From assembly GCA_017527675.1 (NCBI GenBank), contig JAFXPU010000002.1:6400-70399 (forward strand): 64,000 bases of DNA, given 5' to 3'. How positions within the stretch are numbered: the first letter of the stretch is position 1; every line of letters starts with the position of its first letter. Positions 7,084-54,798 of this stretch are shown here, piece after piece. The position numbers were made by a program, and so were the translations under genes. The notes beneath the pieces are model-generated. The model had not been told where the DNA came from. It worked only from the letters and a program-made list of their open reading frames with translations, and ran no database searches. The DNA is from Bacilli bacterium. Lineage in GTDB: Bacteria; Bacillota_I; Bacilli_A; RF39; UBA660.

Positions 7084-7115
7084 AATTATACCATAAAAAA
7101 AGCAATAATTTCTTA

Positions 7116-11190: not shown

Positions 11191-11237
11191 CTAATCACCA
11201 TATAAATTATATCATAAAAAAAGACTTCTTATGAAGT

Positions 11238-11852
11238 CTATTTTTTTAATGATTCGTATACTAATACTGATGCAATAGTCATATATGGCATTAACCAAAT
11301 ATATAAAATACCTAAAGTTAATGCTCCAAGAATTTCCCATCCAATAAATGATAGAATAAATACGAATATTTCAACTTTATGCCCGTTAGTAATATCCCAG
11401 CATTTTCTTAATGCATCAGTTACAGGTAATTCAGGATTATCAGCAATTACAAATTCATATAAAGATAAACCCATAGCAGCTATAAAACCTGGAATAATTA
11501 ATAAAATCATACCAATTAAAACATTTAAACCTACTAGTAAAGATGCAAGTAAAGAAACAACCCAATTCTTTTTAATGAACTCTAGTATATCTTTTACTTC
11601 CATTCTTTGTCCACGTACAAAACCTAAGCAATAGTATGCATAACCAACAGAAAAAATTGTAGATATTATTGAAACAATTGAACTACCAATACTACTAATT
11701 GCACCATCAGCATTTGCAGCTGTATCAATAATTCCTAATATAATTGCAAAAGGTAATACTGCTAATAATAAATATACCATTGGTTTCCAAATATACCATA
11801 AATTACCCTTTACCATTTTTCTGGCATTTTCCTTAATTAAAATTCTATCCAT
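11238..11852 (-). CDS. DUF975-like integral membrane protein
   Basis: 204 aa with several hydrophobic helices. N-terminal ILIKENARKMVKGNLW resembles DUF975. Confidence 0.45.
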   Translation of the reverse strand: MDRILIKENARKMVKGNLWYIWKPMVYLLLAVLPFAIILGIIDTAANADGAISSIGSSIVSIISTIFSVGYAYYCLGFVRGQRMEVKDILEFIKKNWVVSLLASLLVGLNVLIGMILLIIPGFIAAMGLSLYEFVIADNPELPVTDALRKCWDITNGHKVEIFVFILSFIGWEILGALTLGILYIWLMPYMTIASVLVYESLKK

Positions 11853-31397: not shown

Positions 31398-31956
31398 TAT
31401 TATTGGTATAAGTGGTAGTCCTAGAATTAATAAAGGATCATCATATAACTATTTAAAAAGAGTAACTAACAAAATAATAAGTAGTTATATATATAATAGT
31501 AAGGACCTTAAATTAATTAAAAAAAGCGATACAATTATTTTTTCTTTTCCTTTATTTGTTGATTGTCTGCCTTCACATTTCTTAAAATTCTTAATAGAAT
31601 TAGATAATAATAAAATAACTAATAAAAATATCTATGTAATATGTAATTTAGGTTTTTATGAAGGAAAACAAGGTAATATAGCTATTGAGATTATGAAGAA
31701 TTGGTGTCACAGAACCAATAATAATTATATGGGCGCTTTAGTAATTGGTGGAGGTCCATTATTTAACTATCCTGTTATTAAACTTAAACCAAATCACTAT
31801 TTAAAAAAACTAAGTGATTGTGCTATTAATAGTAAATTATTTAACGATAAATATATAGCTCCCCTATTACCTAGATGTATTTACTATAGATGTGGTAATA
31901 TGAGTTTTAAAAATGATATAAAGAAAAATGTAGTCAAAAAGAAAACCATTATTTAA
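31390..31956 (+). CDS. Flavodoxin-family protein
   Basis: Overlaps the previous gene by 8 nt; similar size and layout. Confidence 0.45.
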   Translation: MSNIIGISGSPRINKGSSYNYLKRVTNKIISSYIYNSKDLKLIKKSDTIIFSFPLFVDCLPSHFLKFLIELDNNKITNKNIYVICNLGFYEGKQGNIAIEIMKNWCHRTNNNYMGALVIGGGPLFNYPVIKLKPNHYLKKLSDCAINSKLFNDKYIAPLLPRCIYYRCGNMSFKNDIKKNVVKKKTII

Positions 31957-31961
31957 ATAAT
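31936..31961. terminator. Bidirectional hairpin overlapping convergent stop codons
   Basis: AAAACCATTA-TTTAAA-TAATGGTTTT, a perfect 10-bp stem. Confidence 0.5.
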
Positions 31962-32345
31962 GGTTTTTTCATTTTCATCTTTCATAGGCATCACAATATA
32001 TTCTGCACCATCACTATTAGTAATATAAGCATCACTATTAATATTCTTTATAAGGTTAAAATCACTTTTGTCTAGTTTGTCAAGGTGCTTTTCTAACAAT
32101 GATTTATCAATATTATTACCTTTTATAGTATAAATATATACGTTCTTATCTAAATAAAGAAAATCACAACTATTATTGTCTTTTAAATAATATATTGGTC
32201 TTAAATTATTCTTTTTAGCATTTAGCAAATCTTTAAATGATTGAACAAAGATAATATTTTTAGAAAATAGTCTAGGAATATTAACTATTTCTACTAGAAT
32301 GTTATCATACTTTTTTAAAGTATCTTTAATTAATTTATTTCCCAT
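31953..32345 (-). CDS. Hypothetical 130-aa protein, last gene of the TasA/SipW-like cluster
   Basis: Start overlaps the stop of the SipW-like paralog by 11 nt. Confidence 0.4.
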   Translation of the reverse strand: MGNKLIKDTLKKYDNILVEIVNIPRLFSKNIIFVQSFKDLLNAKKNNLRPIYYLKDNNSCDFLYLDKNVYIYTIKGNNIDKSLLEKHLDKLDKSDFNLIKNINSDAYITNSDGAEYIVMPMKDENEKTII

Positions 32346-33540
32346 TAATATTTCCTTTTACTAAATCCTTAAACCAAATAGTTGGATAAGCTATTTTTTT
32401 AACTTTAAAGTTATTATAAATACCTATTAAATCTTTTTTAGAAATATATTTATATGTATATTTATTATTTGTTTTAGTCTTTTTAACATATAAACTAACT
32501 ACATCATCTTCATTAACTTCCTTTAAAGCAATACGATCAATAATAATTTTATTCTTTGATTTATATGCTATAATATCACCTTTTTCATAATCATCATATT
32601 TTAGTCCTTTATAGATAATAATAGCATCACCTTTTTCAATTTTAGGGCCAATTGCTGATGTATCTACACCAATTAAATGATATGAGAAAATACCAGATAT
32701 TAAACCAACAAAGATAGTTATAATAATAATTAAAGGTATATCTAGTAAGAATACTCTTAAAGTATTTAATTTTTTATTTGGTTTTTTATTCTCAGGATTC
32801 TTTTCATATTCTTTTTCTTTAACATAGTATGTAATCATACGACTACCATATATATATAATAATGTTGGGAAACATATATTAATAATACTAGTTAAATAGT
32901 TACCTAAATCTGGAACAGATGGCACTAAATAAATATATAATCCTAAAGTTATAACATATATTAAACATGGTAAGTAACCAACTTTATCTGTAAAATATGT
33001 TAATACAATATTTTTAAATATAACTGGTATAATAACAACTGTTAAGAAAATAAACATATTTTCAGCTGTTACATCAAATGTATAAAAACATAAACTAATA
33101 TCAAAGAAGATAATAATTAGTATACCAAGCAATTTAGCATAATTATATTCACGATTATTAGTAATATAAATATATCTAAATACTTCTAAGGCTGTTACAC
33201 TTATAAGTGGAGCCCAGATGTTTTTTAGAATACTTACAAATCTTAAGGAATAAGAATTTCTTAAAAATCCAGTAAATAATCCAAGTAAATATATAAAAGT
33301 GAAATAGATAAATATTCCAATAATAAATTCATAGATTATTTTTTTAGTTATTTTAGTTATTTTTATTTTTTTATAATCATAAATAAATATACTTATAATA
33401 GTAATTATTAGAATGAAGAATGCACTTAATGTATGTGCTAAATTAGGTAACTTTGGAACAATTAAAATAAAATAAATAAATGTATAAATGAAGGTAGCTG
33501 TTAAGACTAATAAATTTTTAACTGTATTTTTATTTATCAC
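32335..33540 (-). CDS. SipW-like (S26B-type) signal peptidase paralog fused to a polytopic membrane domain; probably catalytically degenerate
   Basis: 401 aa. About 8 TM helices (aa 1-270) followed by a peptidase-like fold GVDTSAIGPKIEKGDAIIIYK...IIIDRIAL. It is homologous to 52948..54135, but Ser-Met is replaced by Ala-Ile and the HRI His by Asp. Confidence 0.55.
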   Translation of the reverse strand: MINKNTVKNLLVLTATFIYTFIYFILIVPKLPNLAHTLSAFFILIITIISIFIYDYKKIKITKITKKIIYEFIIGIFIYFTFIYLLGLFTGFLRNSYSLRFVSILKNIWAPLISVTALEVFRYIYITNNREYNYAKLLGILIIIFFDISLCFYTFDVTAENMFIFLTVVIIPVIFKNIVLTYFTDKVGYLPCLIYVITLGLYIYLVPSVPDLGNYLTSIINICFPTLLYIYGSRMITYYVKEKEYEKNPENKKPNKKLNTLRVFLLDIPLIIIITIFVGLISGIFSYHLIGVDTSAIGPKIEKGDAIIIYKGLKYDDYEKGDIIAYKSKNKIIIDRIALKEVNEDDVVSLYVKKTKTNNKYTYKYISKKDLIGIYNNFKVKKIAYPTIWFKDLVKGNINGK

Positions 33541-33548
33541 TTTAACAC

Positions 33549-34247
33549 CTACTTTTCAACATAGACAATCTGATATTCAAGACTAAGCATTTGAGCTTCA
33601 TCTGGTAAATCAGAGGCCTCTATATCAGTTCTAAATTTTAAAACAAACTTAATTGTCTTTTTACTATGTGCACTTAGTGTATCATTTATATCTATTTTTG
33701 TTCCATCTTTATACGTAATTTCATAATTTAAATATCTTTTTTGTCTAGTTGTTAAACCTTTATTAATTATTTCAAATATTTTAGCATCATGAGAACCGCT
33801 ATTAACTATATCAACTGTAAATTCATAATAGTCACCTGGTTCTTCTAATTTAACTTCATAATAAATATCTGTTTTATTATTAGCTATTTTGGCTTTAGTA
33901 ATTGGTTCAACTGAACCATCTTTTTCTTTTAGATTTTCAAATTCAATATGCCAATCTAAATCTTTAATTTCGGTTGTTCCTGTTTCAACTGGAATATATA
34001 CAGCAGGCAAGACACGACCTGGTTCTTTATCTGGCTTTTGAGGTTCTGGTTCAGGTTGTGGTTTATCTGGTTCAACCGGTTTAGGTTCATTTCTTTTTAT
34101 AACTTTTATACCTAAATTAAAGGCTAAAGAGGCATATGCAATAGATATTAAAATTAAAACAACAATAAATGATAAAAAGTATACTGGTTTAGCTTTAGTA
34201 TCTTCTATTTCAATGTCATCTATTTCCTTTTTTACTTCCTCATTCAT
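33549..34247 (-). CDS. Membrane-anchored TasA/camelysin-like domain protein
   Basis: 232 aa. TM anchor FLSFIVVLILISIAYASLAF, a Pro-rich spacer (EPKPVEPDKPQPEPEPQKPDKEP), then a domain aligning with the giant protein N-domain (EPGDYYEFTVDIVNSGSHDAKI ... LSLEYQIVYVEK). Only 8 nt gap to the SipW-like gene. Confidence 0.5.
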   Translation of the reverse strand: MNEEVKKEIDDIEIEDTKAKPVYFLSFIVVLILISIAYASLAFNLGIKVIKRNEPKPVEPDKPQPEPEPQKPDKEPGRVLPAVYIPVETGTTEIKDLDWHIEFENLKEKDGSVEPITKAKIANNKTDIYYEVKLEEPGDYYEFTVDIVNSGSHDAKIFEIINKGLTTRQKRYLNYEITYKDGTKIDINDTLSAHSKKTIKFVLKFRTDIEASDLPDEAQMLSLEYQIVYVEK

Positions 34248-34339: not shown

Positions 34340-37300
34340 TTACATCATAAATTCAAGAATGCAGTATTCATATTGGTCATCAACGGCAGGTACTATCTTG
34401 ATTTGGTAATTTCTTTCAGTATCAGATGTTGCAGATCCAGCTGTACGAGCATTTGTTGAACCTGTAAATTTACCATCATAGAAGTTGAATGCACCATTAC
34501 CACGAGATATACCATAACCAGTTGTTGTACCTATTGCTTCAATATATGGATCAATTGTTGATGTTGTAGTTGAATCAAAACCAGTGTTTTCTTTAATACC
34601 TAATGTTATAGAACCACTAGTTGAATTATCATCTATTCTTACACCATATGCTGTAGCAGCATGAGCATAAATATTACCAGTTTCAATTGTATATGAACCA
34701 TTATTAACAAACGCACCATAAGCTGATGTTGTACCATTTACATGATAATCAGCATTACGTGTTACTAATGTTCCTTTATCCACATAGACACCATATGTAT
34801 TAACTGAATCAGTTGAATTAAATTCACCACCATCAACTGTAATATTACTATTAGTATTATCTGCATAAATACCAAAGGCATTATTAGCTCTATTAATATT
34901 AATTTCAATATTACTGATTGTTGATGAATTAGAAGAATTATCAAGTATAGCATACATTCTCTCAGCTTTATTCATTGTAAATGTATCTCCATTAGATGTT
35001 AAGATAGCTGTATTATATATACCAGCTTCATATCTATAATAATATGTTCCATTTTCATAAGTACGATTTAAAGTATAATCATTACCAGTAGTATTTAATG
35101 TACCACTATTGCTAATAATTCTTACATAATTATTAGTACCTGAATAAGTATCTGTAAATACAACCGTATTATTATTCAATGTTAAAATACCACTATTACT
35201 TATCATATTAAATTCAGAATAATTACCATAACTATGTGTAATATTAGCTTTCTTAATTGTTGTTGTACCTGTATTAGAAATAGTTCCTTTAATATCTTTA
35301 ATATTTGTATTACTAATACTTAATGTACCATTTGTTTTAGTATTGTTAATATTACCAGTTATTTCTGTATCAGTTATTGTTACATTAGGTGTTGAATTAA
35401 TATAAATTGAATTTGTACCTTGTAATATAGAATCACTAATTGTATTTGTTTTAGTTGAATTATCATATATTACATAATTACTTCCTTTAACAGTTGAATC
35501 ACTGATTGTATATTTTCCTGAATTTATAATTGCTTGATTACGTGAAATATTTGTAGCATAAGTTATTGTTAATACTCCATTTTCATCATTATCAACAGCA
35601 TTATAATTTTCTAATTCAATATTACTAATTGTTAAATTATCTTTATTAATAAGTGCTGTAACAGATAAACTGTTGCTTAATTTTGAATCATTATTTGTAT
35701 CTAAATTTGTAATAACTAATGTACCATTGTTGGTAATTGATTTTGTCATATTAAGATTATGACCATGTAAATCAATAGTAATTGTCTTACCTGTTGGAAT
35801 TGTTACAGCATATGACAAGTTAGCATCAGCATTAAATTCTAATGTTGCACCATCATCTGCTAAATCAATAGCCGTTTGTAAATTAGAACGTGGTTCTGAA
35901 GGATTACTACTATCTATAATGAAAGGTTGTTCTAACACAAGATAGATTTCCTTAATAAATTCTGAGGCATAGATTGGTTCAACTTCATAGCCATACATTC
36001 TCTTATTATATAAGTTTGGATTAGCTATATAACCAGATCCACCTCCAGCTCCACCATGACCGCGGTTAGATCCACCACCACCGTAGTAACCACCACCGCC
36101 ACCGGCGCCGCCGTAGCCTGAATTACAGAAATTAGATCCTTGGCCAAATGAACCATAGCCACAACTACCATTAGCTAATTTACCACCTGATGTTTGTGTA
36201 GCACCGGTACCATTATATGAGGTGTATGAATTATTATATCCATCGTAACCAGAGTTACCTTTATAACCACCAGCATTTCCACCTGGTGAAGTAGTACTAG
36301 AACCTCCAGCTCCACCACCACCAGCAGCTACGATTATAATTGCATCTTTATTACTTTCAAGTGTTGATAATAATCCTGAGGCTGTAGCAATGTGTGTTGC
36401 TCCACCACCGCCATATGACCATTGGCCGCCGCCTGAGCCACCATTACCACCGCCGTTGTAACCGCCATCATATTGAGTTCCAACACCACCAACATTAATA
36501 TATAATGTTTCACCAGCAGTTAAATCAATATAACCTTCTGAATATCCACCATAACCACCATTTGAGCCTCCACCTTGAGCACCCCATGCTTCTAATCTAT
36601 ATGTTCCTGTACAAGGAACAGTAAATGTATTTTCAGCATTTTCAGGTAAATATGAATATTCGTGATTTTGTTCACATACTCCCTCAACAGTTTCACCAAC
36701 ATAAGTAATTTTAGCATAACCATTATTCATTTTTGCATAATGACTAATTGGATCCTCAGATACACTTGTTGTTGAATATGTTCTATATTTTTGATTATCT
36801 AATGATATTTCCCCAGCATTACTTTCAAATATTTCATAACCACTTCTAACATTTGAAATAATACTATTAACAGCTTCATTAGTACCAATAATATGACCAG
36901 AATATATATTTACACTTGCATTAGAAGAATATATACCAAATAAACCACCATTAACATATGGATCAGTTATATCATTTTCATCTTCTAAATTACCGATTGT
37001 TACATATATCGTTTCACTAGCTTGTTGTATACCATAAATTGGAGCTATTATTGTTCCTTTATTTAAGTTTAATGTTGTTGAACTATATGCAGGATAAGAA
37101 TACATATATACACCAACATTACCTGATGTTATTTCTCCACCATTAATGTTTATTGTTTCATGACTTTGTGAATAATAACCCGGACTACTATAACGGTATA
37201 TACCATAAGCATCTGCACCTGGTGTTGTAATTATCGTATTACCATTTATTTCTAGGTAACCACGTTCATCATTTATACCAAATGCGTTACTTGCACCAGC

Positions 37301-40300
37301 ATTGATTGTTACATCTGTTAATGTTACTGGAGCATATTTATATATACCAGAAGCATTATCTGCAGTTATAGTAATATCACTTATATTACAGTTAGATTCT
37401 GATGTACAATATATTGCATAATAATCTCTATTAGTTGCAGTTGTGATTACTTCGGTATCACTACCACTGATAGTTAAATTATCATATTGTGATCTAATTG
37501 TATGTTCACCACCAGTAAATGTTCCACCAGTAATAGTTATTGTTCCTTTTGGATTCTTATAAGAATCACTATAAATAGCTGAACTATTTGTCGATGTAAT
37601 AGTACCATCTTCAACTTTTACTTTTGTACCATATCCAGCTAACCTAATTGATTCTGCTGTTGTTTGAATTGAACCATCTTTCATTTCTAACTCACTATTT
37701 TGACCATTTAGATAAATAGCAACATTTGTTAAATCAAATGAACCATTATTCATAATTATCTTTTGAGCTGAATCAAGATAGATTCCACGATATCCTTCAA
37801 ATGTTGGATTATTTTGTAATGTTATTGTTCCTGTTCCAGATGAACCATAAATAGAACTTCCAGCAGATTTTAGATGAGCACCATCTAATACCATTATTCC
37901 TTTGTTTTCAATAGTATTAGTAATAGTATTATCTAATAAACCTGAACCATTATCGTAAATAGTTAAAGTTCCTTCATTAACAAGTGGTTGAGTCATTGTT
38001 AATGTTTTACCATTCATATTAATAGTAATATTTTTTGAACTTGGAATTGTTGCACCAGATTGTACAAAAGCAGATGACTTAACTAAAATTGTTCCTGTAT
38101 CTTCAATTGCACCAATTGCTGCAGTAAATGAATTGTATTCATCACCATTTACTATTAAGAAGGCTTCTTTTGGAACTAGATAATTAACTATCCAAATATC
38201 AGTTGGAATTTGGTAACCATACATTTCTCCACTAATTATATTTACATCTTTTATGTAGCCTGAGCCACCGCCGCCAGATCCGGCAATGTCTGAATTAACA
38301 CCAGAACTACCACCACCGTAGTAGCCACCGCCACCACCAGATGAATAGTCTGTTCCATTTGCACCTTTACCAAATGAACCAGCAGCACCATTATTATATG
38401 TACCTTCACCAGCAGCACCACCTGCAGTTTGAGTACCACCACCAGCTAATTTAGTTAACGATGGTTTAGACTGACCACCATGGCCACCTTCATTACCACC
38501 ACCAGATCCACCTTGAGCATTGTATGATCCGTAGCTACCACCGCCACCACCACCGGCAACAATGATAATATCATCTCTATTATTTTCAAATGTAGTAAGT
38601 AAGCCAGATGATTTAGCTATATGAGTAGCTCCACCACCAGCATAATAGTTATCACCAGTAGAATTACCACCACCATTATAGCCACCTGTTGAACCAACAC
38701 CTTGACCACCTACATTAATATATAGAGTATCTCCAGCAGTTAAATTAATTTTACATGTTGAGTAACCACCATAACCACCATTTGGTGATCCACCTTGAGC
38801 ACCCCATACTTCTAATTCGTATGTTCCTGTTTCAGTAACATTAAATGTTTGTTCTCCATTTGTAAAACTAAATGTTTCAGTTTCATCTTCAGCAATGAAT
38901 GTTATCTTAGCATAACCGTTTCCTTGTTTAGCTTTCTTACTAACTGGATCCTCTGATACTTCTTCTGTTGAATTTGTAATTATATTACCAGTTACTGAAG
39001 AACTCTCTTGTACTGTAGCAATATCATATGCTTCACGAGTTGAAGAGAAATCACTATTATATCCAGCAGAACTTCCTCTTAAACGTCCTGAATAGAAATT
39101 AGCAGTACCAGCTTCTTTATAGATACCATATGTTCCACCTGATACATATGGATCATAGATATCATTCTCATTATTTAAATTACCAATAGTTGTATATACA
39201 GTGCTAGATGTTTGTTGAATACCATAATTCTTACCTGTTATAGAACCATTATTCATATTAAGAGTTGTTGAACTATAAGAAGGATAAGAATACATATATA
39301 CACCAACATTACCTGATGTTATTTCAATATCATTAATAGTAATTGTTTCATAACTTTGTGAATAATAACTTGGACTACTATAACGGTATATACCAAAAGC
39401 ATTTGAACCTGGTGTATTAATTACTGTATTACCATTTATTTCTAAGTAACCGCGTTCATCATTAATACCAAATCCATTGCTTGCGCCAGCATTGATTGTT
39501 ACATCTGTTAATGTTACTGGAGCATATTTATATATACCAGAAGCATTATCTGCAGTTATGGTAATATCACTTATAATGCAATTAGAATCTGATGAACAAT
39601 ATATTGCATAATTATCTCTATTTGTTGCGGTTGAAATAACCTTTGTATCGCTACCACTAATAGTTAAATTATCATATTGTGATCTAATTGTATGTGTTCC
39701 ACCAGTAAATGTTCCACCAGTTATATTAATTGTTCCTTTTGGATTCTTGTAAGAATCACTATAAATAGCTGAATTATTCGTTGATGTTACAGTACCATTT
39801 TCAACTGTAAGTTTTGTATTGTAACCAACTAATCTAATTGATTCACTACCAGTTGATATTTCTCCATTTTTCATCTCAAATTCACTGTTTTGAGCATTAA
39901 GATAAACACCTACACCTGTAGTATTAATTGTTCCGTTATTCATGATAACCTTTTGAGCAGAATCAACATAAATACCATTATATCCTTCAATAGTTGGATT
40001 GTTTTGTAATGTTATTGTTCCTGTTCCAGCGTTTCCACGAATAGCGTAATTAGTAGATTTAATACTTGCATTATCAATTACTAATGTACCTTTATTGATA
40101 ATAGCATCAGATGCTTTATTATCAATTTTACCTGTTAATCCAGGTTCATTCATTATCGTCAATGTTCCTTCATTAGTAATTGGTTGAGTCATTGTTAAAG
40201 TATGACCTTGTAGATCTAGAGTAATATTATTTTCACTTGGTACGGTTGCTAATTCTTGTAGACTTGCATTTTTAAATACATAAATTGTACCTGTATCCTC

Positions 40301-43300
40301 TACATCACCAATAGCAGCTTCAAGTGAATTATATTCAGTTCCGTTATATATCAAGAATGCTTCCTTATTAACTAAATAATTTACAGTCATTGAATTTCCA
40401 TAGTCAGAATAAGTATACATTACTTTATTGCTTAAGCGACTGTTGTTATTATAACCAGAACCTCCGCCACCAGCTGTAGCATAGTTGTTACCAGCAGCAC
40501 CACCACCGTAGTAACCACCACCACCGGCACCACCCATAATTTTATTTGAAATTGTTGATTCAGGACTACCACCTTTACCAAATGATCCATTTCCTAAATT
40601 ATTATTATAGGCAAAGTATCCAGGTCTATTTACTGTTGCACCAGTACCATAGTACTGTGGATAAGATGGAGATGGAACACCATCTGCAGCTCTGTAACCA
40701 CCGGCATCTCCACCAGAACCATATTCTGAAGAGCTCCAGTAACCAGAACCACCACCACCACCGGCAACAATTAAAATTGCTTCTTTATTATTTTCTAATG
40801 TTGATAACTCACCTGATGTTGTAGCAACATGTGTTGCTCCACCACCAGATCCAGAATAGAATCTTGTTGATGGATAAAGCATTACAGCATCTCCACCACC
40901 ATTATAACCACCTGGAATAGTAGTGTTATTATCATAACCTATTGTACCAGCACCACCAACATTAACATATAGTGTTTCACCAATACTTAATTCAATTTCA
41001 CCTGTAGCATATGAACCATATCCACCACGAATTGATTCACTATATGAACCACCTTGAGCACCCCATACTTCTATTTTGTATAAGCCAGCACATGGAGCAC
41101 TAAATGGTGCTTCTCCAGGTTCAGTAAATGAAGTAACAGAATTTTGTTCGCATACACCCTCAATAGTTTCGCCTAAATATGTTATCTTAGCATAACCATT
41201 ATTCATTTTTGCATATTCACTAATCGCTTCATCAGAAACATTATTAGTGACAATTGTTAAATTCTCTGATGTATTTTCATGTTCACTAGTAATTTCTTTT
41301 GCAGCACGTAATGCATTAAAATCTTGATTATATCCGCCTGATAAACCTCTTAAACGTCCTGAGTAGAAATTTGATGTACCACCATTTTTATATAATCCAA
41401 ATAATCCACCTGATACATATGGATCATAAATATCATTTTCAGCATTTGGATTACCAATTGTAACATATACAGTACTTGAAGCAGCATGGATACCATATGT
41501 ATCACCAACTACTGAACCATTATTCATTACTAATGTTGTTGTACTATAACTTTGTCCTGAGAACATATATATACCAACATTACCAGATTTAATATCAACA
41601 TCATTTATAGTTATAGTATTATAACTTTGACCATAATAACCTGGATTACTATAACGGTATATACCATAAGCACTACCTCCAGGTGTATTAATTATAGTAT
41701 CACCATTAATATTTAAATTACCACGTTCATCATTAATACCAAATGAATTATTAGCATTTGCATTTATTTCAACATCTGTTAATGTTACACTACTATATGC
41801 ATATACACCTGAGGCATTTTCAGCTGTCATTGTTGAATTTGTAATATTACAATCAGATTCAGAATAACAATATAAAACATACTTGTCATTACCTGAACCA
41901 GTAACAATCATATCCGTACCACTAACTGTTAAATTATCATAGTAAACTCTAACAGCACTTGATACACCAGTTATAACACTATCAGTTATCTTTATAGTTC
42001 CTCTTGGACTCTTATAAGAATCACTAAAGTAACCATAAGTACCTGTTGAAGTAATATTACTTCCATCAATTGATACCTTAGTATTATATCCTAATGTTCT
42101 AATTGCCTCATTTACTGCTGTAATAGAACTATCATTAACTTCTAATTGACAATTAGTATTTTCTAGTCTTATACCAACATTAGTTGCATTAATATCTGCT
42201 TCATTAACCACAAATTTTGAATTATCTTTGTTACATGTTAAAGCATTATAACTATTTATAGTTGTACCATCTAATGTTGCTGTTGTATTTGCATTAGTAA
42301 ATTGAATAGATGCACGTTGTCCATTATCAATAATATTCGTATCACCAATTGTTACATTTTTAGCAACTTCAATACCTTGAATATTACCACCACTAATAAC
42401 ATAATCTTCATGATTACTTAATAAAGCATATGTATCACTTTTTAAGTAAGAATCATTATCCATTGTAAATGTACCAACGTTATTAACAGCATAACCATTT
42501 TTAGCTTCAATACTAGAATTAGTAATATTTAATGTTCCATTATTATTAATAGTATTACTATTTGTAACTTGTTTTAAAATAATATTTTCAATAGTTAACT
42601 CGCCATCATTAGTAATTGGACTTGCACTTGTAATTGAACCTGGATTTTCAGATATATCATAGATTCTTAAAGTACCATTATTAGTTATTGGACTACCTGT
42701 TGTAATATTGTAACTTTGCATATTTATTTCAATATCATAATCTTCTCTTATTTCAATAGCATATGATGCCTCAAAATCTCTTACAATATTAACTGGTTTA
42801 CCCATATAGTTAGCTGTATCTATTGCATTTTGAAGATTGAAGAAATATTGAACATTTTCTCCACCATTTTCAATGATTGCAACAGCATTAGCTGGGTTAC
42901 CATTTAAGAAACTTCTTTGATATATTGTTCCAATTACTGGTTCTGTATAGAATGTATATCCACGAGGTAATGAATTAACTCCACCATTTAGAGTAAATTG
43001 ACCTTGTAAATATCCATCATAGAAGTTAAATGAGCCATTTTGTTCTAATGCTACTGTTGAACCAATAATAGCAATTGCTTCTGTTTCAATAGTTCCGTCA
43101 TTAACACCCATTGTTAAAGTTTTATTATTAACAAGACCAGTACCATCTGGATTATTAATAGTACCATTTAATAAAATCATAATACCATTATTAATAAATG
43201 CACCAGTTAAAGTATGACCACCTAAGTTGAAGGTTACATTCTTATTATTAGTTACATTTTCAGTTGTATCTTTAATAAGTTCAATTGTATCATTTTCATT

Positions 43301-46300
43301 TGCAGCTGCTAAAGCTTCAGCAATAGATACATAGTATTCATCGCCTATTTTAGCAACAGCATCATCATTAACTGTCCAAACAGCTGTAACAGTAGCATCT
43401 GATAAATTCATTGTTACAGTATTACCATCTAAGATTCCAGCCTCAGATGCTTCCCAATGATTGAATGTACAAGCATGTTTTTCAAGTTCACTTGGATTAT
43501 CAATTAATAGATATGGTTCACCATGTTTTAAGTAAACTAATCTAACTTCTTTTGATCCTTTATAGTATCCAGATTTTGGATCTATTGTTAAATATAAATC
43601 TGTATTACCAGCTATAATATCATCTATTGATAATGATTGAAGATATTTTCTTTCACTTTGTTCTTCATGTTTTGTAACAACACGTGCAAGATTAGCAATA
43701 GATGTTATTTCACCTTCCATAGCTTGGCTACCTTCAATATAACCATCATACATATTAAATGTATTATTGTTTTGTACAGCTATATTTTCACTTATTATTC
43801 TTATACTAACACTTGATACAGCTTCATCATTTTGACCCATGTTAAATGTACCATTATTAACAACAGCATAATCATCAAAGTTCATGATTGTACCATTATA
43901 AATATCAAGTGTACCATTGTTAGTTACTTTGGCTGTAATACTATATCCACCTAAATTAACTACTGCTTTACGACCAGAAGCAACTTCAATTTCGGTTTCA
44001 TCAGAAATTGGTTTTAATAAAGTAATCACACCACCTAATTCTTCATCATAAGCATTAATAGCAAGTTGTAATGATGAATAATAAGTTTCACGATATACAG
44101 CAACAGTTTGTCCACCGTAATCATTTTTAATATTTTCTAGCCATGCATATTCATAACTAGTTTCTTCATCGACATATGTTGTAACTTCTTGATCTTTTTC
44201 AACTAATGTAGTAGTTCCTACTTTAGCAAAACGAGAAGCCCAGATAACACCATCGTAGAAATTGAATGATCCATTTTCTTTATCTACACCAATACCTTTT
44301 GTAGTACCAATTGAGTGGATAACTGGATTTTCTTGAGATACATTATCTACTGAGTTGTCATAATGACCCATGATAAATGTACCTGGATTAATGTAAGCAC
44401 CATAAGTTGTTGGAGCATCAGATACATTAATTGAACCAGTTAATAATGTAGTTTGGGCATTAGCAGTAACCATATAAACACCATAGTTTTCAGCACTACC
44501 AACGGCATTTATTTCTGAATTATCAATTAAAGTGTTACCGCTGCCACTAGTTTCAATACCATAGTATTTACCAGTTTTTTGTTCAGCATGTCCAACAGTT
44601 AAACTACTTTCATTTTCTAATGTTAAAGAACCTGTATTAGAAATACCTTTAACGTAATATTTATAAGTATTAGTCTCATCAACTTTAATATTTGTATTAT
44701 TGATATCCATTGTTCCACTATTATAAATAGCTACATAAGTATCACTATAATTATAGTTTTGTGGACTACCTAAATTAATATTTGAATTATTAATAGTCAT
44801 AGTTGCTGAGTTACTAATTGAACCACCATTTGTATTAGTAACATTTACTCTTTCGAATGTTGCAATAGAATTACTTGAATTTGATATTGATCCATTAGAA
44901 CCAATTATGATATTAGTATCAGTTACATCTAAAGTAGTTCTTATACTTTCAATGTTTCCATCAAGTACTGTATTAATTCCATTACCAACAACAGTTACAG
45001 TTGCTTGGGAATTATCATTAGAATAAATACTATAGTTTTCACCACTATAATTACCACCAGTAATAGTAACATTTTTAGTATTATTAATTGCAATTTTACT
45101 AGCTACAATATTTGAAGAAGTTATATCTAATGAATTTGTATTATAAATTGCATTAATAGCATTCATTCTTGAATTATTAATTACTAAATTACTTGTATTG
45201 TTAATTATATAATTTGATGAACTAACATTAGTTAATTTAATGTTATTAATATTTAGAGTTCCATTATTATTAATTAAATTGATTGCAGATGAAGTTTTAA
45301 TATTTGCTTCATTTTCTGAATCATTAATTAAAGTAATGTTACCATTATTCGTTATTGTTTTATTTGTTGAAATTGTATAACCATGTAAGTCTAAGTTGAA
45401 ATGTTTAGTATTATTATTTGTAACAGAATAGTATAAAGGAACATTAGCTACTAAGACAACTGTTTGATCTGTATCAGCATCATTTATAGCTTCTTGTAAG
45501 TTAGTATATTCAACTCCTGTTTCCCTGTTATATGCTATAACACTTTCCATAATTAAATATTTAACTTTATAAGTTTCACCATCAATAATTTCTGTATCTG
45601 GGAATATTTGAGCATGAGGAGGAATATTAGAAATAATTCCATATTCAGCTTCTGTTGTTCCTTTTAAGATACCATCATAGAAATTAGTTGTTCCACCATC
45701 AATATATAAACCATAGAAAGTACCTTGAATCATTGGTTGAGTTATATCAATGCTATTATCTTCCACAACACCTAATATTGTTGTTCCAGTTGTATAAACA
45801 CCATAAGCACCACCAATAATAGAACCACCTGTAATAACACAGTTATCAGATGATGTATTTAAACCATTGTTATCTTCACCAGTAATAATACCGCCTGTAA
45901 TTAAGATTGTATTACCTGAATTAGTATTTGCAACACCATTTGTTTTACCAGTGATTGTACCACCATTGATAACTACATGGCCTAAAGCATAATAACTACC
46001 CTTAGTAACAGATACAGCAGTGCCAACTGTAGATGTAATAGTACCATCATTGATAGTTGTTGTACCATCTTGAATAGCAACAGCATTACTATTTGCTACA
46101 TTTGATGTAATAGTACCGCCATTAATAGTTGTTGTACCCCAGCTATCTAATGAATATGTATCAGTTCCTTCAATAGTACCACCATTAATTGTTAGAGTAC
46201 CACTACTATATACACCACCATAGTTATTAATTGTTAAATTATCAATTGTTAAAGTACCACCATTGTTAATAGCATAATCTTGATCAGCATTATATGTACC

Positions 46301-49300
46301 ACCTTCAATAGTAAGAGTACCAGTGTTATAAACAGCAGCAGTATTATATCCATCCGCATTACCATTTGAACGGATATTAGTTATACCACCATTACCAACA
46401 CTATCTTTAATTGTGTTAGTACCTTTAGTTTGAAGTGGTTGAGTCATAATAACTGAATGACCATTTAAATCGAATGTTATGATTTTACCATATGGAAGTT
46501 CTTGTTCATAATCAACATAAGCATCAGCAATAACTTCAATTGTACCTTCAGAATCAATTGCTGCTGTTGCGTTAGTTAAGGTATTATATTCAACTCCATT
46601 AACTCTTAACCAGTTACCAACTGGAACTAAATATTGAGTTTTATAATAATCACGATCAATATAAGTATAATCATCTTTGATCATATAAGCATCAGGTATT
46701 AAACCAATTAAACCATTATGTGGTTCTTCCATACCTTGTAAAACGCCATCAAAGAATTTTGTATAAGCAGTTGTATTTAAACCATATCTTTTACCAGTTA
46801 ATGATGGAGATTCAATTGATACATTTTTCTCATCATCACCTATTTGCGTTTCAGTTGATGTATAAACTCCATCAACTTCACCAATTATTTCACCAGCATG
46901 GATAGATAATTTAGCACCAATTGCATGAATACCATAAGAATCAGTACCTTTAACTTTACCACCAGTTATGTTTATGTCGTGGTAATAGCATCCACCCCAT
47001 CCAGAGTAATAACAGATATGTTCAATACCCATTGTACCAGTTACTTCACCGCCTGATACATTAGTTACCTGAGCTGTAACAACAGCAACACTATTATTAG
47101 ATTTAACTTCACCATTGGAAACTGTAATACTACCATAGTAAGAATATAAAGCATTATGAGCATTAGCTTCTACACTACCACCATCAACATGAATAGTAGC
47201 ACCAGCTCCCCCAATACCATAATTTTCGCCAAATATTGTTCCACCATCAACATAAACAGTTCCAACATTATAGTTGTATGGTGATGAAATACCCATATCT
47301 GAACCAGTAATAGTACCACCATGAACAGTTGTGTTACCTCTGTTGTTAATACCAGCAAATGATTCTTCAATATTGATATCATTTATAACTAAATTAGCAT
47401 CGTTAGTAATTGCATATTTATTAACATTAAAATAAGCATTGTTAATTGTAAGTAGACCAGATTCATTTATGATAACTTCATCTACTACTTCTGATAAATA
47501 ATTACCAGCTTCAATAGTTAATTTATTTCTATTTGTAATACCAGCAATTCTTGTTGGTTTTATTGTACCTAAATTACTGTCATCAACAATTGTTACATCA
47601 GAATCATTGTATATTGTTTGAGTACTTGTAATTGTATGACCATTTAAATCAAATGTAATATGTTTATAGCCAGTTTCTTCTGTACCATTATCAACAAAAT
47701 GTTGAGTAAATACTAAATCAGCATCTTTAATAACTGTAATGGTACCTGTTTCACCTTCACCAATAGCTTTAGATGCAGCATCGATAGAATTATATTCTGT
47801 ATCACCAACTTTTAACCAATTTTCATAATGAACAATAAAATCAGTTTGATATAAGTTTCCATCAATTTCTTCTTCACCTTCACCACCAACGCAGGCAAGT
47901 GGTAAACCAGTAATACGACCTTCATAACCATCTACTTGACCTTTTAAAATACCATCATAGAAATTAGTAACAGGTCCATCAATATATAAACCATAAGCAC
48001 CACCAATAATTACTGGATAATCTTCTGGCTCATCTTCATCAGTGTCTTCAAAACTGCCTATTGTTAAAGATCCTTTATTATAAACGCCATAGTTTTCACC
48101 ATAGATATCTGTTTCACTACCTGTAATTGTACCAGTACCCATTACCGTAATGGCATTAGCTTCACTACTATGTACTTTACCACCACTGATATTTAAGTTA
48201 GTTGTAACCAATGCATCATTTGCTGATAACACTTCACCACCAGAAATAGTAGCAGATGAAACCGAAACTGCACGACTTTCTGATGTAACCTTACCACCAG
48301 TAACTGTTAAAGAATTATTTGAATAAACACCATAATTTTTACCAGTTATCTCACCAGCAGAAATATTAACGTTGCAACTACTGATACCAATATTTTCACC
48401 TTTAACAAGTCCACCATAAACATTAACAGTTTGACCACCGCAAGATATAGCAGTATCGTTATCAGAATAAACATCACCAGCATAAACATTAACAGTTGCA
48501 CCACTAATAGCAATTCCATTAACTGATTTAATTTCGCCATTATTATTAACATTAACAGTACCTGATGAAATAGCATTACCTTGGCTAGTTATTAAACCAC
48601 CATTAGCATTAACAGTACCATAGCCATCATAGTAATTAGATATACCTGTTGTTTGAGATGAAATAGTACCATCATTTACAGTAATAGTTCCTCTATTGTA
48701 TATCATTGTTGTATCATAGTTTGTACTTATTTCACCAGCATTCATTGTAATAGTTCCTGTATTAGTAATAGCTGGAATATAATTTCTATCATCTATTTTA
48801 TAAACATGTAATTTAGTATTTTCATCTAAGACAATTGAACCAGTATTATATAAACCATAAATAGTACCATCATCAACAACTAAATTATCTGATTTATTAT
48901 ATAAACCATAATTACCAGTTGAATCAATTAATGTATCCTCAGTAAAGGTAATTACGGCATCAGTATTATTATAAATACCATATCCACCTTTAGAAGTAAT
49001 TTCTGTATCATCTAAGTTTAAAGTATTATTATTTTGAATTACGTTACTATCAGTTGTTGCTACAAGATCAACATCATCAATATCCATAACACCATTATTA
49101 ATGATTGTAAATGATGTTTTTAATTTACCATCGTCTTCAGCAGAACTTAGTATCTTGAAATATCCATTATTAGTAACTGTATTACCAATTGATACTGTAT
49201 GACCCATAGTGTCAAAGAATAATCTTGAGTTTTCAGGAATTTCTATTTCATAAGGTGCTTCAAAATTACGATGAGCATAAACTATAAAGTTTGAATCTAA

Positions 49301-50812: not shown

Positions 50813-50842
50813 CTAAAAAAAAAGCAAACTTGATAAGTTTAC
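50813..50842 (-). terminator. Intrinsic terminator between the 249-aa gene and the giant gene
   Basis: Minus-strand hairpin GTAAACTT-ATC-AAGTTTGC followed by T8-9 (A run at 50815-50823). Overlaps the upstream gene's stop codon. A TATAAT element lies about 40 nt upstream of the giant gene ATG. Confidence 0.5.
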
Positions 50843-51588
50843 TTGATTTTTTCTATTATTAATTTATTATCCTTAACAGCAAATTCAACAATTACATCAT
50901 TATCAACTTTTCCTATCTTGGAAATATTGTCTTTAGTAATCATTTTTTTAACTTCTTTAGCCTTAGCTTTTCCCTTTAAATAATCAGATATAGCCTTAGT
51001 ATCAACGTTATTTTGGTTATCTTTAAATTTATTATTTAAAAGACTAATATCATTATAATAATTCAAGATTTTATAAGGATTATCAACTACATATTTACTA
51101 AATGTTACTTCAAATTTTTTGTTATTTATTTTTTTAATTTTCTTTAATTCAAATTTAACAATTTTAGTTTTCGCAATGTCTGATTTTATATTAGATTTAT
51201 TATAAGTATAACTAGCATTACTAAGATCAAACACAATTCCCTTATCAGCCATATAAGGAGTAATTCCAATACTTGCAACTGCATCAATATCATATTCTTT
51301 ATCAAAATATTTGTTAACAACTTCAATTATTTCATTAGCGCTAAAAACGTTTTTATCGGTATTATTATAAAGATATTCAATAGCAAAACAAATATATTTA
51401 CCGCTTTCATCATCATGTTCTGTTATTTCCTCTAAATAATCAGCTATTTCATTACTAGTTTCTTCAACTTTTATTTTCTCTAAATTAGTCATTTTCTTTG
51501 ATTTTTTAAAGAAAATGAAGCAAGCTAAAAGAATAATTAAAAATGCTATAGCTATTATAAAATACTTATTAGTTAATACTTTTTTCAT
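50839..51588 (-). CDS. Membrane-anchored hypothetical protein (paralog A)
   Basis: 249 aa, N-terminal TM helix. Paralog of 51596..52351 (shared GITPYMxD, KKxKVT(F/Y)xKYV(V/I)(D/E)NPY(K/E)(I/V)LNYY). Confidence 0.5.
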   Translation of the reverse strand: MKKVLTNKYFIIAIAFLIILLACFIFFKKSKKMTNLEKIKVEETSNEIADYLEEITEHDDESGKYICFAIEYLYNNTDKNVFSANEIIEVVNKYFDKEYDIDAVASIGITPYMADKGIVFDLSNASYTYNKSNIKSDIAKTKIVKFELKKIKKINNKKFEVTFSKYVVDNPYKILNYYNDISLLNNKFKDNQNNVDTKAISDYLKGKAKAKEVKKMITKDNISKIGKVDNDVIVEFAVKDNKLIIEKIK

Positions 51589-51595
51589 ACTTCAC

Positions 51596-52351
51596 CTACT
51601 TTATCTTATCTATTAATAATTCATCATCTTTGACAACAAAAATAATACTAATTTTTTTATCATATTTAGCAAAATTCTTAATATCATCCTCATTGATTAC
51701 TTTTTTAAATGATGATAACGAACCAGAACCCATTAAATAACTTTTTATTGGGCTTAAATCGATTAAATCTTGTTCTTTTTTTTGCGTATTTTGTTCCATA
51801 TAATAATTTAAAACTTCATATGGATTTTCAATAACATATTTTTCATATGTAACCTTATATTTCTTACGGTTTACCTTACTCATTTTTTTTACTTTATAGT
51901 ATGCTATTTCTTTTTTAGAAATAGTACTAGCATCAACAGTATTAAAAACTATTGAATAAGTATCATTTCCAGGTTCATAAGATACATTATTATCTAACAT
52001 ATATGGTGTAATACCAACATTTTTAATATCATCTTTAGTAATTTCTTTATTAAAATTATCCTTAATAAATGTTGCTATTTCTTCACCCGTTAACCTATTT
52101 TTATTTAATTCTATTTTATTATATATCAAAGCATAAACAATATATTTTTCGTCATCTTTTGCATCTACATCTAAGTAATTTAAATAGTTAATTATTTCAC
52201 TATTTTTCTCTCTAATATTCTTCTTTTCTAATGATGATAAAGATCTAAAATGAAATAAATATATCAAAATAGTTACTAAGAATATAAAGCCTAATCCACA
52301 TAATACTATTAGGCCTAATCTACGGTTATCAACGTTTATTTTATTTTTCAT
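51596..52351 (-). CDS. Membrane-anchored hypothetical protein (paralog B)
   Basis: 251 aa, N-terminal TM helix; 7 nt gap to paralog A. Confidence 0.5.
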   Translation of the reverse strand: MKNKINVDNRRLGLIVLCGLGFIFLVTILIYLFHFRSLSSLEKKNIREKNSEIINYLNYLDVDAKDDEKYIVYALIYNKIELNKNRLTGEEIATFIKDNFNKEITKDDIKNVGITPYMLDNNVSYEPGNDTYSIVFNTVDASTISKKEIAYYKVKKMSKVNRKKYKVTYEKYVIENPYEVLNYYMEQNTQKKEQDLIDLSPIKSYLMGSGSLSSFKKVINEDDIKNFAKYDKKISIIFVVKDDELLIDKIK

Positions 52352-52382: not shown

Positions 52383-52940
52383 TTATTTCTTGATTAAAAT
52401 AACTTTATATGTTTTATCATTACTTAATTTAACAATTGTATTTGAATCAATATCATCTGTTAATTTTTTCTCATCTATTAAATCTAAATGTTTGTTAATT
52501 TTTTCAACAAACAAGGATTTACTTTTATCATTTTTATAAAAAACATAATATAATAATTCCTTATCAGTTTTAACCATAAAAACACTAGAATTATCCTCGC
52601 CTAAGTACATAATAGGTGTATCTAATTGCTCATGAGCTTTTACAAGATCATTAAAACTTTTTACCTTTAAAACATCATCATTAGCAAAATTATATTCGTT
52701 TTCCAAATAAACAATATCTGAATTATATATACGCAATATTCTTTTTATAGTTCTTAAATAATTAGATTCGTCGTCTGTTTTTCTAATCATTAAATATACT
52801 AAATAAATAATTAGAATTGCCATAATAGTTACAAAAACAATGGCATAATTAATAGCATCATTTAAAAATGATATAAATGAAGCCAAAAATAATCCTAATA
52901 TTAAAAATCCTAATACTATTATTTTATTTGTATTATTCAT
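52383..52940 (-). CDS. Small membrane protein (2 TM) of unknown function
   Basis: 185 aa; start 8 nt after the SipW-like stop. Confidence 0.45.
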   Translation of the reverse strand: MNNTNKIIVLGFLILGLFLASFISFLNDAINYAIVFVTIMAILIIYLVYLMIRKTDDESNYLRTIKRILRIYNSDIVYLENEYNFANDDVLKVKSFNDLVKAHEQLDTPIMYLGEDNSSVFMVKTDKELLYYVFYKNDKSKSLFVEKINKHLDLIDEKKLTDDIDSNTIVKLSNDKTYKVILIKK

Positions 52941-52947
52941 ATTTCAC

Positions 52948-54135
52948 CTACTTAAACATAATAGCCGGATATGCTATATAAGGTATACTAAAAACAACTT
53001 TACCTTTAATTTGCTCTTTTTTTACATATCCTTTATCAGCTACATTATTATAATCACCTTTGGTAATAAATGTATTATCACTATTAACTTTAATAATACG
53101 ATGAACAATTAATTCTTTTTCATCAGTTTTAAAGGCAATAATGTCGCCTTCTTTTAACTTGTCAACACTAAAATTTTTAGATATTATAACCGCATCCCCA
53201 ACATTTAATCTTGGAGTCATTGATCCAGTTTCAATACCCACTAATTTATAAGGCCCAATACCCGCAATTAAGCAGTATATTATAACAGCTGCAACAGCAA
53301 ATGGAATATCACTCAATTTAAAGAATGAACGTTTTTCTTCTTCTAATTTGACTTTTGAATCCGTTTGTCTAGACATTGTTATAGTGATTAAAAATGGTAA
53401 TAATAATAGGCCCAAACTATTAATATAATCATTTAAATCAGGTACAATTGGTACAATAAATATATATAATTCAGTTAAAAATCTATATAATAATGGTCCT
53501 TTATAATCAGCATAGTATACTGCATAAGTACACATTATATTTTTAAGAATTGATGGTAACATAATCGTAGATACTACATCAAACAATTCATAACTATCAG
53601 TTAAAACATCAAATCTTATATTAATAATTATATCTAATAAAGCTAATATTAAGGTAAAAACAATAATATTTGCTTTACTCTTTTTATTAGCTTTAATATA
53701 AACAAATCTAAGTATTTCCTCTAATATAATAATTAATATTAAAAAAAATGTATTATTTATAATTGATAATGGTTTTAAGGAATAAGCATTTTTTAAAAAA
53801 GACGAAGTAAAACCAATACCATATATTAAAGCAAAATACAAAGTTGCAAAAATAGCTATAATTGATATAAATACTTTATTGTGTTTTAAATTAACCTTTC
53901 TTTTAAAGCCATAAAAATAAATAGCCAAAGAAGTAATAATCATTAACACAGATGTAGTTATAGCATCAGCATATTTTAATACATTTGAGTACACAAAAAA
54001 TCTATATATTAAAATATATATAAGAATACTTGTTAAAATAACTAAATTGTAAATATTTTTCTTCTTCTTCTCTATCATACTATCCCTATATTCCATTATA
54101 ATTTTATCATTTTTTTGATATAAAAAAAAGAGCAT
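52948..54135 (-). CDS. SipW-like (S26B-type) signal peptidase fused to a polytopic membrane domain; catalytic Ser and His present
   Basis: 395 aa. About 7-8 TM helices, then IETGSMTPRLNVGDAVIISK (GSMxP Ser box) and ELIVHRII (His box) as in SipW/Sec11-type peptidases. Begins 9 nt after the TasA-like gene. Confidence 0.6.
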   Translation of the reverse strand: MLFFLYQKNDKIIMEYRDSMIEKKKKNIYNLVILTSILIYILIYRFFVYSNVLKYADAITTSVLMIITSLAIYFYGFKRKVNLKHNKVFISIIAIFATLYFALIYGIGFTSSFLKNAYSLKPLSIINNTFFLILIIILEEILRFVYIKANKKSKANIIVFTLILALLDIIINIRFDVLTDSYELFDVVSTIMLPSILKNIMCTYAVYYADYKGPLLYRFLTELYIFIVPIVPDLNDYINSLGLLLLPFLITITMSRQTDSKVKLEEEKRSFFKLSDIPFAVAAVIIYCLIAGIGPYKLVGIETGSMTPRLNVGDAVIISKNFSVDKLKEGDIIAFKTDEKELIVHRIIKVNSDNTFITKGDYNNVADKGYVKKEQIKGKVVFSIPYIAYPAIMFK

Positions 54136-54144
54136 TTAATACTC

Positions 54145-54717
54145 TTATTGATTTTGAACATAGTCTAATTCATATGATTTTGAGAATGTGAAATCAGCAC
54201 CTGGTAAATCTTCAGCATTTATATCAAATGGGAATTCAACTCTAATAACAACATGTTGATAATTAGCTGATCCTGGAGCTAAAGTACTACCTTCAGCTGG
54301 CATACCAGTTACAGAATAAGTTACATAAGCTAAAGATGAAACATCATCACCATTTTCTCTTAAATCATCTAATAAAGCTACTAATGTACCATCATTAGCA
54401 ATATCAAAACCAAATTCAAAAAATTGACCTGGTTCTTTTAAAGTTACATTAAAAGTAATTTTAGTATCATCTGTTGTATCAATTACAGCAGTATTTCCAG
54501 GTTCAGATGTTGTTGCATCTGGATTTAAATAAGAACCGTTTGTAATAGCTAAATTTTTGAAATGTACATTCCAACCTACTCTTGAAATCTTAGCGTCACC
54601 ATTGATACTTAAAGTTGTTTTTAACTCTGCATAACCAAAACTAATTCCTGCAATTAATGCTATAAATAAAGCAATAAATAAATATCTTTTTTTGAAAACA
54701 ACGTTTTCTCTTTTCAT
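54145..54717 (-). CDS. TasA/camelysin-like secreted protein with a SipW-cognate-type signal peptide
   Basis: Signal FIALFIALIAGISFGYAELKTTLSINGD, then LKEPGQFFEFGFDIANDGTLVALL (compare B. subtilis TasA NLKPGDKLTKDFQFENNGSLAIKEV) and C-terminal YELDYVQNQ shared with the giant protein N-domain. Start moved to the ATG with AGAGGTG RBS (track start 54726 is a GTG). Confidence 0.55.
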   Translation of the reverse strand: MKRENVVFKKRYLFIALFIALIAGISFGYAELKTTLSINGDAKISRVGWNVHFKNLAITNGSYLNPDATTSEPGNTAVIDTTDDTKITFNVTLKEPGQFFEFGFDIANDGTLVALLDDLRENGDDVSSLAYVTYSVTGMPAEGSTLAPGSANYQHVVIRVEFPFDINAEDLPGADFTFSKSYELDYVQNQ

Positions 54718-54798
54718 TACACACACCTCTATCTTAGTACATTATAACATATTAATTCAATTATTGTTATATTTTTTTGAAAAAAAACAAAAAAAGAG

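Follow-up and report, generated by a model that had tools for sequence, protein, structure and literature searches.

A conserved, catalytically degenerate SipW-type signal peptidase paralog in a surface-fibre gene cluster of an uncultured Bacilli bacterium, with a proposed role in fibre anchoring

A long surface-fibre gene cluster of an uncultured Bacilli bacterium encodes two full-length polytopic signal peptidases of the SipW/Sec11 type, one of which is almost certainly a conserved non-catalytic paralog. The cluster lies on contig JAFXPU010000002.1 of a metagenome-assembled genome (MAG; GCA_017527675.1), of which we analyzed a stretch of 64,000 nucleotides (positions 6,400 to 70,399), referred to here as the window. 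All coordinates below are those of the window, and all genes described lie on its minus strand. We use the label DEAD for the degenerate paralog of 401 amino acids (aa; 32335-33540), LIVE for the intact copy of 395 aa (52948-54135), and A, C, D, E, G and I for neighbouring genes. What is new here, as read from the sequences, is that a pseudo-signal-peptidase arose independently in a class of fibre loci recognized only recently.

DEAD and LIVE share 32% identity across 393 aa (BLASTP, E=2e-44) and are thus full-length paralogs. LIVE matched TIGR02228, the model for signal peptidase I of the archaeal or endoplasmic reticulum (ER) type, at E=2e-24, and it aligned to human SEC11A and SEC11C at the motifs SGSMEP, IVHRV and TKGDNNxxD; on the basis of this alignment, its Ser305, His345, Asp361 and Asp367 are the canonical residues of the S26B subfamily. 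In a MAFFT alignment of 99 sequences, the same four columns are occupied in DEAD by Ala296, Asp335, Lys356 and Thr362. The nucleophile box (box B, DTSAIGP, 32644-32664, aligned with ETGSMTP of LIVE) has Ala296 in place of Ser and Ile297 in place of Met, and box D (IIIDRIA, 32527-32547, aligned with LIVHRII) has Asp335 in place of the general-base His. Box E (VKKTKTN, 32467-32487) has lost the TKGD motif together with the second Asp of TKGDxNxxxD, leaving K356 and T362 at the two Asp columns. A first-pass annotation of this DNA had already described an open reading frame (ORF) at 32335-33540, had aligned it with the intact copy in boxes B and D, and had concluded that the Ser-His dyad was gone. 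The ORF does exist on the minus strand with 401 aa, BLASTP reproduced both aligned blocks, and the 99-sequence alignment confirmed the loss of the dyad and revealed it to be larger than described, extending to both Asp of box E.

These substitutions are shared by a whole clade. Searching 5.8 billion proteins yielded 97 relatives. Sixty clusters at 90% identity, with 40-99% identity to DEAD, carry degenerate motifs, while the remaining full-length relatives (23-37% identity) conserve the Ser, Met, His, Arg, TKGD and Asp at 100%. In a neighbour-joining tree, the sixty dead clusters form one monophyletic group, with LIVE in the sister group. The nucleophile column of the dead clade contains A in 32 members, N in 10, S in five, L in four, Y in four and other residues in the rest, so that Ser is missing from 55 of 60, compared with S in 37/37 members of the live clade. 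Likewise, the general-base column, which is H in 37/37 live members, contains D in 50 dead members, A in five, N in two, and G, S and Y in one each; His is absent from 60/60, and neither His nor Lys occurs at this column in any of the 60 members. Both box-E Asp are present in 37/37 live members and missing from 60/60 dead members.

The conclusion of inactivity depends on the alignment, and it would fall if Ser and His were placed elsewhere in the paralog, a possibility that the first-pass annotation had raised and that we checked across the dead clade. The residue immediately before the lost nucleophile is in fact a Ser, Ser295 (codon at 32662-32664), which all 60 dead-clade members share, and the corresponding position varies among E, G, D, N, A and P in active relatives. 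No base accompanies it at the base column in the 60 members, and the only frequent Lys of the dead domain is K382, found in 56/60 and replaced by Y, V or I in the other four. By its sequence, DEAD is inactive by canonical S26B criteria: it belongs to S26B by fold and homology, and it lacks the Ser, the His and the box-E Asp of that subfamily. Its best NCBIfam family is TIGR02228 rather than TIGR02227, at E=3.1e-11 and 43 bits, which is below the cutoff of 51.85, and it matched NF046067 (SipW) at E=1.2e-7. In practice, dead-clade genes risk being labelled "signal peptidase I", and one cluster member already carries this name.

Within the dead clade, a sub-branch (P0005, P0007, P0008 and P0010) has Ser at the nucleophile position, in some members as Ser-Met (ASSMQP), and lacks the His and both Asp; it may represent an intermediate state in the loss of activity. 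Viewed against the whole family, the dead pattern is infrequent. A profile search of 1.84 billion cluster representatives identified 1098 full-length family members at E<1e-30, and among the best 150 family representatives (50%-identity clusters), the dead pattern was found in four (P0007, P0011, P0056 and P0130), the other 146 having the intact pattern with the exception of one truncated entry. On this sampling of sequences, the dead form is a rare side branch with a single origin within a large active family.

DEAD is under strong purifying selection. Comparison with its ortholog in a related locus (L001, 84% identity) gave an overall ratio of nonsynonymous to synonymous substitution rates (dN/dS) of 0.15. 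Taken separately, the peptidase-like domain scored 0.12 and the membrane domain 0.16; for comparison, the value for a neighbouring amidohydrolase gene was 0.09. Mean pairwise identity within the dead clade is likewise similar in the two parts of the protein, at 0.50 for the pseudo-peptidase domain and 0.48 for the transmembrane (TM) domain. The invariant residues of the dead domain are S295, G304, D305, G373, Y375, A384, P386 and T387.

The overall architecture of the protein has been retained. The AlphaFold2 (AF2) model of DEAD has a mean predicted local distance difference test score (pLDDT) of 89 and a predicted TM-score (pTM) of 0.83, and contains nine helices followed by a β domain. AF2 and the alignment delimit the N-terminal polytopic domain to aa 1-285 (32686-33540), and AF2, Foldseek and hidden Markov model (HMM) comparisons delimit the C-terminal pseudo-peptidase domain of S26 fold to aa 286-401 (32338-32685). 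The last helix (256-282) ties the S26 domain to the membrane and is preceded by a basic loop (240-256); because of this loop and the positive-inside rule, the β domain is predicted to be extracellular. In Foldseek, the best match of the C-terminal domain in the Protein Data Bank (PDB) was SipA of Streptococcus pyogenes (4n31), followed by active signal peptidases (SPases), with SpsB and LepB among the matches. SipA/LepA was also the best PDB sequence match to the dead-clade profile (E=0.011), and when the dead-clade HMM was aligned to it, A296 and D335 fell on the substituted Ser and Lys of SipA. The polytopic domain and the general fold that the first-pass annotation had described as retained are thus borne out, and its suggestion of a pseudo-peptidase kept for a non-catalytic role is well supported by the purifying selection, the monophyletic clade, the retained fold and the precedent of SipA (PMC4049620).

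The genomic neighbourhood of DEAD is also conserved. We assembled related loci (L001-L010) from exact-protein look-ups and from a scan of species-representative genomes, in which the dead clade was found in four genomes; the synteny sample comprised about 10 dead-copy loci and five live-only loci (L011-L015), each seen to ±10 kb. A G-type gene, encoding 190-245 aa with a TM helix, a β-sandwich and, in most cases, a Pro-rich stalk, lies directly upstream of DEAD in 9/9 loci that show that side, and an I/DUF5305 gene lies directly downstream in 10/10 loci. In the window, DEAD starts with GTG, and its ribosome-binding site (AGGTG, 5 nt upstream) overlaps the stop codon of G. I in turn begins with an ATG located within the last codons of DEAD, so that the start of I overlaps the 3' end of DEAD, including its stop codon. 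Because of these two overlaps, G, DEAD and I appear to be translationally coupled. The live-only loci contained only A-type subunits, the live peptidase and DUF5305, and none of G, D, E or DEAD occurred within ±10 kb of the live-clade genes in L011-L015.

The partner G (33549-34247, 232 aa) consists, according to AF2 and alignment, of a TM helix, the junction SIAYASLAFNLGIKV, a Pro-rich stalk (about aa 52-90) and a β-sandwich (aa 100-231) modelled with pLDDT above 90. Its junction follows a pattern common to A-type subunits, (S/G)(I/V)(A/G)Y(A/S)xL...L.I, with small residues at -3 and -1 as expected of a signal-peptidase site, and G-type proteins have a Pro-rich insertion of roughly 30-65 residues between the junction strand and the β-sandwich. 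The most conserved block of G is the junction at the end of the TM helix (residues 31-50), with mean column conservation of 0.88 and 0.71, compared with 0.34-0.49 in the stalk. Top PDB fold matches of the β-sandwich in Foldseek include subunits of donor-strand fibres, namely the PapG pilin domain, AbpA of archaeal bundling pili (7ueg), the TasA fibre (8aur) and the Sulfolobus 0406 filament, all of them weak (E between 3e-3 and 1e-2, none at or below 1e-3). Sequence searches of the PDB found no credible relative of A or G (best E 0.36-0.72); Pfam returned nothing for A and only sub-threshold matches for G (E≥0.016), NCBIfam returned nothing for either, and neither was matched by the TasA/camelysin models of the two databases. 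Because the sequence searches found no credible relative, we use "TasA-like" for A and G in the sense of fold and context. The first-pass annotation had placed DEAD directly after a membrane-anchored TasA-like protein, which it also called TapA-like. The position is confirmed by the G-type neighbour, as is a TM-anchored β-sandwich protein with a link to TasA at the level of fold and context; the TapA comparison finds no support in the sequence, since G has no sequence similarity to TapA or TasA and is unrelated in sequence to TapA of Bacillus subtilis. In one live-only locus, the subunit junction reads TWAAF, as in TasA.

A possible function for the degenerate copy is suggested by SipA/LepA of S. 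pyogenes, which is without Ser and Lys, keeps its peptide cleft, is essential for pilus polymerization and has been proposed to bind rather than cleave a pilus component (PMC4049620). Like DEAD, SipA/LepA (PDB 4n31 and 4k8w) has the S26 fold with both dyad residues substituted and is encoded inside a fibre gene cluster next to the subunits. It differs in its small size and single anchor, in belonging to the bacterial Ser/Lys type (S26A) and in coming from a sortase-dependent pilus locus, whereas DEAD is of Ser/His SipW/Sec11 descent, is fused to a polytopic domain of about 285 aa, is paired with a DUF5305 protein and belongs to a locus in which neither sortase nor LPXTG was detected. Because DEAD descends from S26B and its nearest active relatives are Ser/His enzymes, its loss of activity is independent of that of SipA. 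DEAD would resemble SipA in mode of action without being a member of the SipA family.

Based on the SipA analogy and the strict pairing with G, we propose as the most likely role that DEAD acts, in these uncultured gut Bacilli, as a non-cleaving pseudo-signal-peptidase that anchors or nucleates the fibre through G, a statement that, taken as a whole, we consider about evenly balanced between right and wrong. The extracellular S26 domain of DEAD would bind the TM-proximal motif of G, SIAYASLAFNLGIKV, as an extended strand without cutting it. G, or its N-terminal strand, would be held at the membrane either by its own uncleaved helix or on DEAD, and the Pro-rich stalk would carry the β-sandwich through the wall. 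This β-sandwich would then serve as the base or nucleator on which A subunits processed by LIVE, together with the giant adhesin of the cluster, assemble by strand donation. The binding of G by DEAD, the absence of cleavage, the protection of G and the anchoring or nucleating role are each our own deduction from the comparisons above.

Several points weigh against this proposal. The binding step on which it turns is itself deduced, and the synteny behind the pairing comes from the modest sample of loci described above, seen to ±10 kb. That A and G belong to the TasA superfamily is a weak assignment, made from fold and context. G keeps the A-x-A-type motif of the presumed cleaved subunits, a possible cleavage site for LIVE, and may simply be secreted. 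The proposal does not account for the invariant Ser295. Finally, given the invariant E119, R122, D147 and N177, the selected function could lie in the membrane domain.

A related possibility, which we regard as somewhat unlikely, is that DEAD acts as a keeper of a signal anchor: it would occupy the cleavage site of G so that LIVE cannot cut there, converting a cleavable signal peptide into a permanent anchor. If true, this would provide a sortase-independent way of rooting a donor-strand fibre and its giant tip adhesin in a Gram-positive membrane.

Another explanation places the selected function in the polytopic membrane domain together with I, which would form an assembly or export platform, or have an intramembrane activity, for the giant adhesin or for D and E, with the S26 domain as a mere structural cap without a ligand of its own. 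Consistent with this, all 60 dead-clade members have E119, R122, Y123, D147 and N177, residues that live members conserve less strictly, the dead module co-occurs with giant ORFs, and Foldseek detected a weak likeness of the N-terminal domain to the intramembrane protease Rce1 (4cad, TM-score 0.35-0.55). However, neither dN/dS nor pairwise identity shows the S26 domain to be less constrained than the membrane domain, and the clade-specific invariant residues S295, Y375, A384 and T387 argue for an S26 surface with a function of its own. The N-terminal domain also has no Pfam or CPBP signature: no Pfam family matched it in 62 family members even at E up to 10, PF02517 (CPBP) included, and of the CPBP motifs EExxxR, FxxxH and HxxxN/D, only E119-x-x-R122 was found in the dead-clade alignment, which has no conserved His. 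We consider this explanation unlikely. As to the motif itself, E-x-x-R-Y of the fourth TM helix (E119-Y123, 33172-33186) is kept in both the live and dead clades; the invariance of D147 and N177 is confined to the dead clade. Despite the weak Foldseek match, an assignment of the domain to CPBP/Rce1 was not made, owing to the lack of a Pfam family.

DEAD could also be a regulator or specificity subunit of LIVE, forming a heteromer that delivers G or the giant adhesin to LIVE or withholds it, for which iRhom-type pseudo-proteases and the non-catalytic subunits of the eukaryotic signal peptidase complex (SPC) are models. Wherever both genes were visible (the window, L006 and L009), LIVE and DEAD were found in the same cluster. 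An analogy to the eukaryotic SPC has already been drawn for DUF5305 (bioRxiv 10.64898/2026.01.04.697558). However, LIVE and DEAD are each paired with a separate DUF5305 protein and a separate upstream subunit, suggesting parallel modules rather than one complex, and we find this possibility doubtful.

It is quite improbable that DEAD is still a hydrolase with an active site re-invented around Ser295. The invariance of this residue, the high frequency of K382, a basic residue at position 303 in 60/60 members and the Ser retained at the canonical position in P0005, P0007 and P0008 would fit such a site. A one-residue shift, however, would turn the Ser side chain away from the canonical geometry, K382 is Y, V or I in four members, the base column offers only D, A, N, G, S or Y, and the box-E Asp are gone; with no invariant His or Lys to serve as the base, we judged a Ser295-based active site unlikely. 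Lastly, every catalytic residue has been lost, as in a decaying pseudogene left by duplication, an explanation that we reject as virtually negligible because of the dN/dS of 0.15, the conservation of sixty clusters down to 40% identity and the conserved gene position, along with the intact 401-aa ORF, the confident AF2 fold, and the operon position and translational coupling that have been kept.

The proposed anchoring role can be set beside known fibre systems. Loci of the TasA superfamily have been described as encoding, besides the subunits, a tip protein, an SPase I with many TM helices and a DUF5305 protein termed "SPase accessory" (bioRxiv 10.64898/2026.01.04.697558; PMC11821415). In the haloarchaeal tafi locus, TafD carries Ser, His and Arg, and deleting it prevents the processing of TafA (PMC11821415). 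LIVE fits both the "ten-TM" SPase I with DUF5305 of AbpX/TasA-superfamily loci and the TafD/TafG pair, having a multi-TM region, an S26B domain and a DUF5305 gene next to it, and those loci further share with the window small β-sandwich subunits and a large tip protein as neighbours. Unlike DEAD, the peptidases of the AbpX/TasA loci and TafD are described as catalytic, and a second, inactive peptidase paralog is mentioned in neither report (bioRxiv 10.64898/2026.01.04.697558; PMC11821415). Our search of the literature turned up no relevant account of an inactive SipW paralog. The SipW-TasA-TapA system of B. subtilis is similar in having a dedicated S26B peptidase encoded with fibre subunits and the same type of signal-peptide junction. 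It also requires an accessory or anchoring subunit in addition to the major one. SipW itself is active and has two TM helices. To our knowledge, no pseudo-paralog of SipW has been found in Bacillus.

The nucleation and cell retention of TasA-, AbpA- and AbpX-type fibres are poorly understood. If DEAD does act through G, a dead copy paired one-to-one with a stalked subunit would be a concrete candidate for anchoring or nucleation in sortase-independent TasA-like fibres. It would be a second case, independent of SipA, in which a signal peptidase was recruited as a non-catalytic fibre-assembly factor, the function here being a prediction, and it suggests that the substrate-binding cleft of the S26 fold is easily repurposed.

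The remaining genes complete the picture of a fibre cluster, which is transcribed in the order A-LIVE-C-D-E-giant-G-DEAD-I within a window whose GC content is 0.20-0.34, mostly 0.22-0.28. Gene A (54145-54726, 193 aa) encodes the presumed major fibre subunit, with the signal peptide GYA/ELKTTLSING and the same β-sandwich as G. C (52383-52940, 185 aa) is the DUF5305-like partner of LIVE, with two TM helices and a cytoplasmic domain; the protein matched PF17231 at E=1.8e-6. I (31953-32345), identified by Pfam and by its paralogy to C (31% identity, E=5e-9), is a DUF5305-like cytoplasmic domain of 130 aa that matched PF17231 (DUF5305) at E=0.016 in its C-terminal part only. It is a soluble domain of this length without TM helices in the window, L001 and L006, and its orthologs in L002 and L004 are DUF5305 (PF17231) proteins of 219-258 aa. 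Because the pairs A and G (28-39% identity in the domain), LIVE and DEAD, and C and I are each related, the simplest history readable from the sequences is that the three-gene module A-LIVE-C was duplicated to give G-DEAD-I, after which one copy lost catalysis.

D and E (50839-52351; D at 51596-52351, E at 50839-51588) encode paralogous single-pass proteins of 251 and 249 aa with 35% identity and without a family assignment. They accompany G-DEAD-I in related genomes, lying upstream of G in L002, L003 and L006-L009, and are missing from live-only loci. Between them and G in the window lies a giant ORF (34340-50749) of 5469 aa, presumed to encode a tip adhesin. Its signal motif and N-terminal β-sandwich are both as in the 193-aa A, and its signal junction reads GSA/FLKSTLSING. 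Its body contains repeated Gly-rich blocks, its orthologs carry PF12810 (ALK_LTK_GRD), and its GC content is 0.28-0.34 compared with 0.22-0.26 in the flanks. The giant ORF is probably the tip adhesin of the fibre, and giant ORFs of 2400 to 7300 or more residues stand beside the dead module in most loci. At its C-terminus, the giant protein lacks both LPXTG and a TM segment, and Pfam gave no sortase match for the cluster genes or within ±10 kb in L001-L006.

The gene order in relatives (L009 and L002) is giant-D-E-G-DEAD-I-A-(A')-LIVE. As this differs from the order in the window, the cluster has been rearranged in the lineage of the window. The records of L001-L010 are titled as uncultured MAGs of a "Bacilli bacterium" or "Bacillales bacterium", and sheep ileum is the source of one. 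One locus, L008 (CAVDCT010000003.1), is titled "Roseburia sp. AF12-17LB" and has the same low-GC, Bacilli-type cluster as the Bacilli-labelled MAGs; its title probably reflects a mistake in binning or labelling in the public record. In the live-only locus L013, bAvd and reverse-transcriptase genes (9865-11258) lie about 4 kb downstream of the fibre locus, close to a gene for a 518-aa surface protein, and this pair looks like a diversity-generating retroelement.

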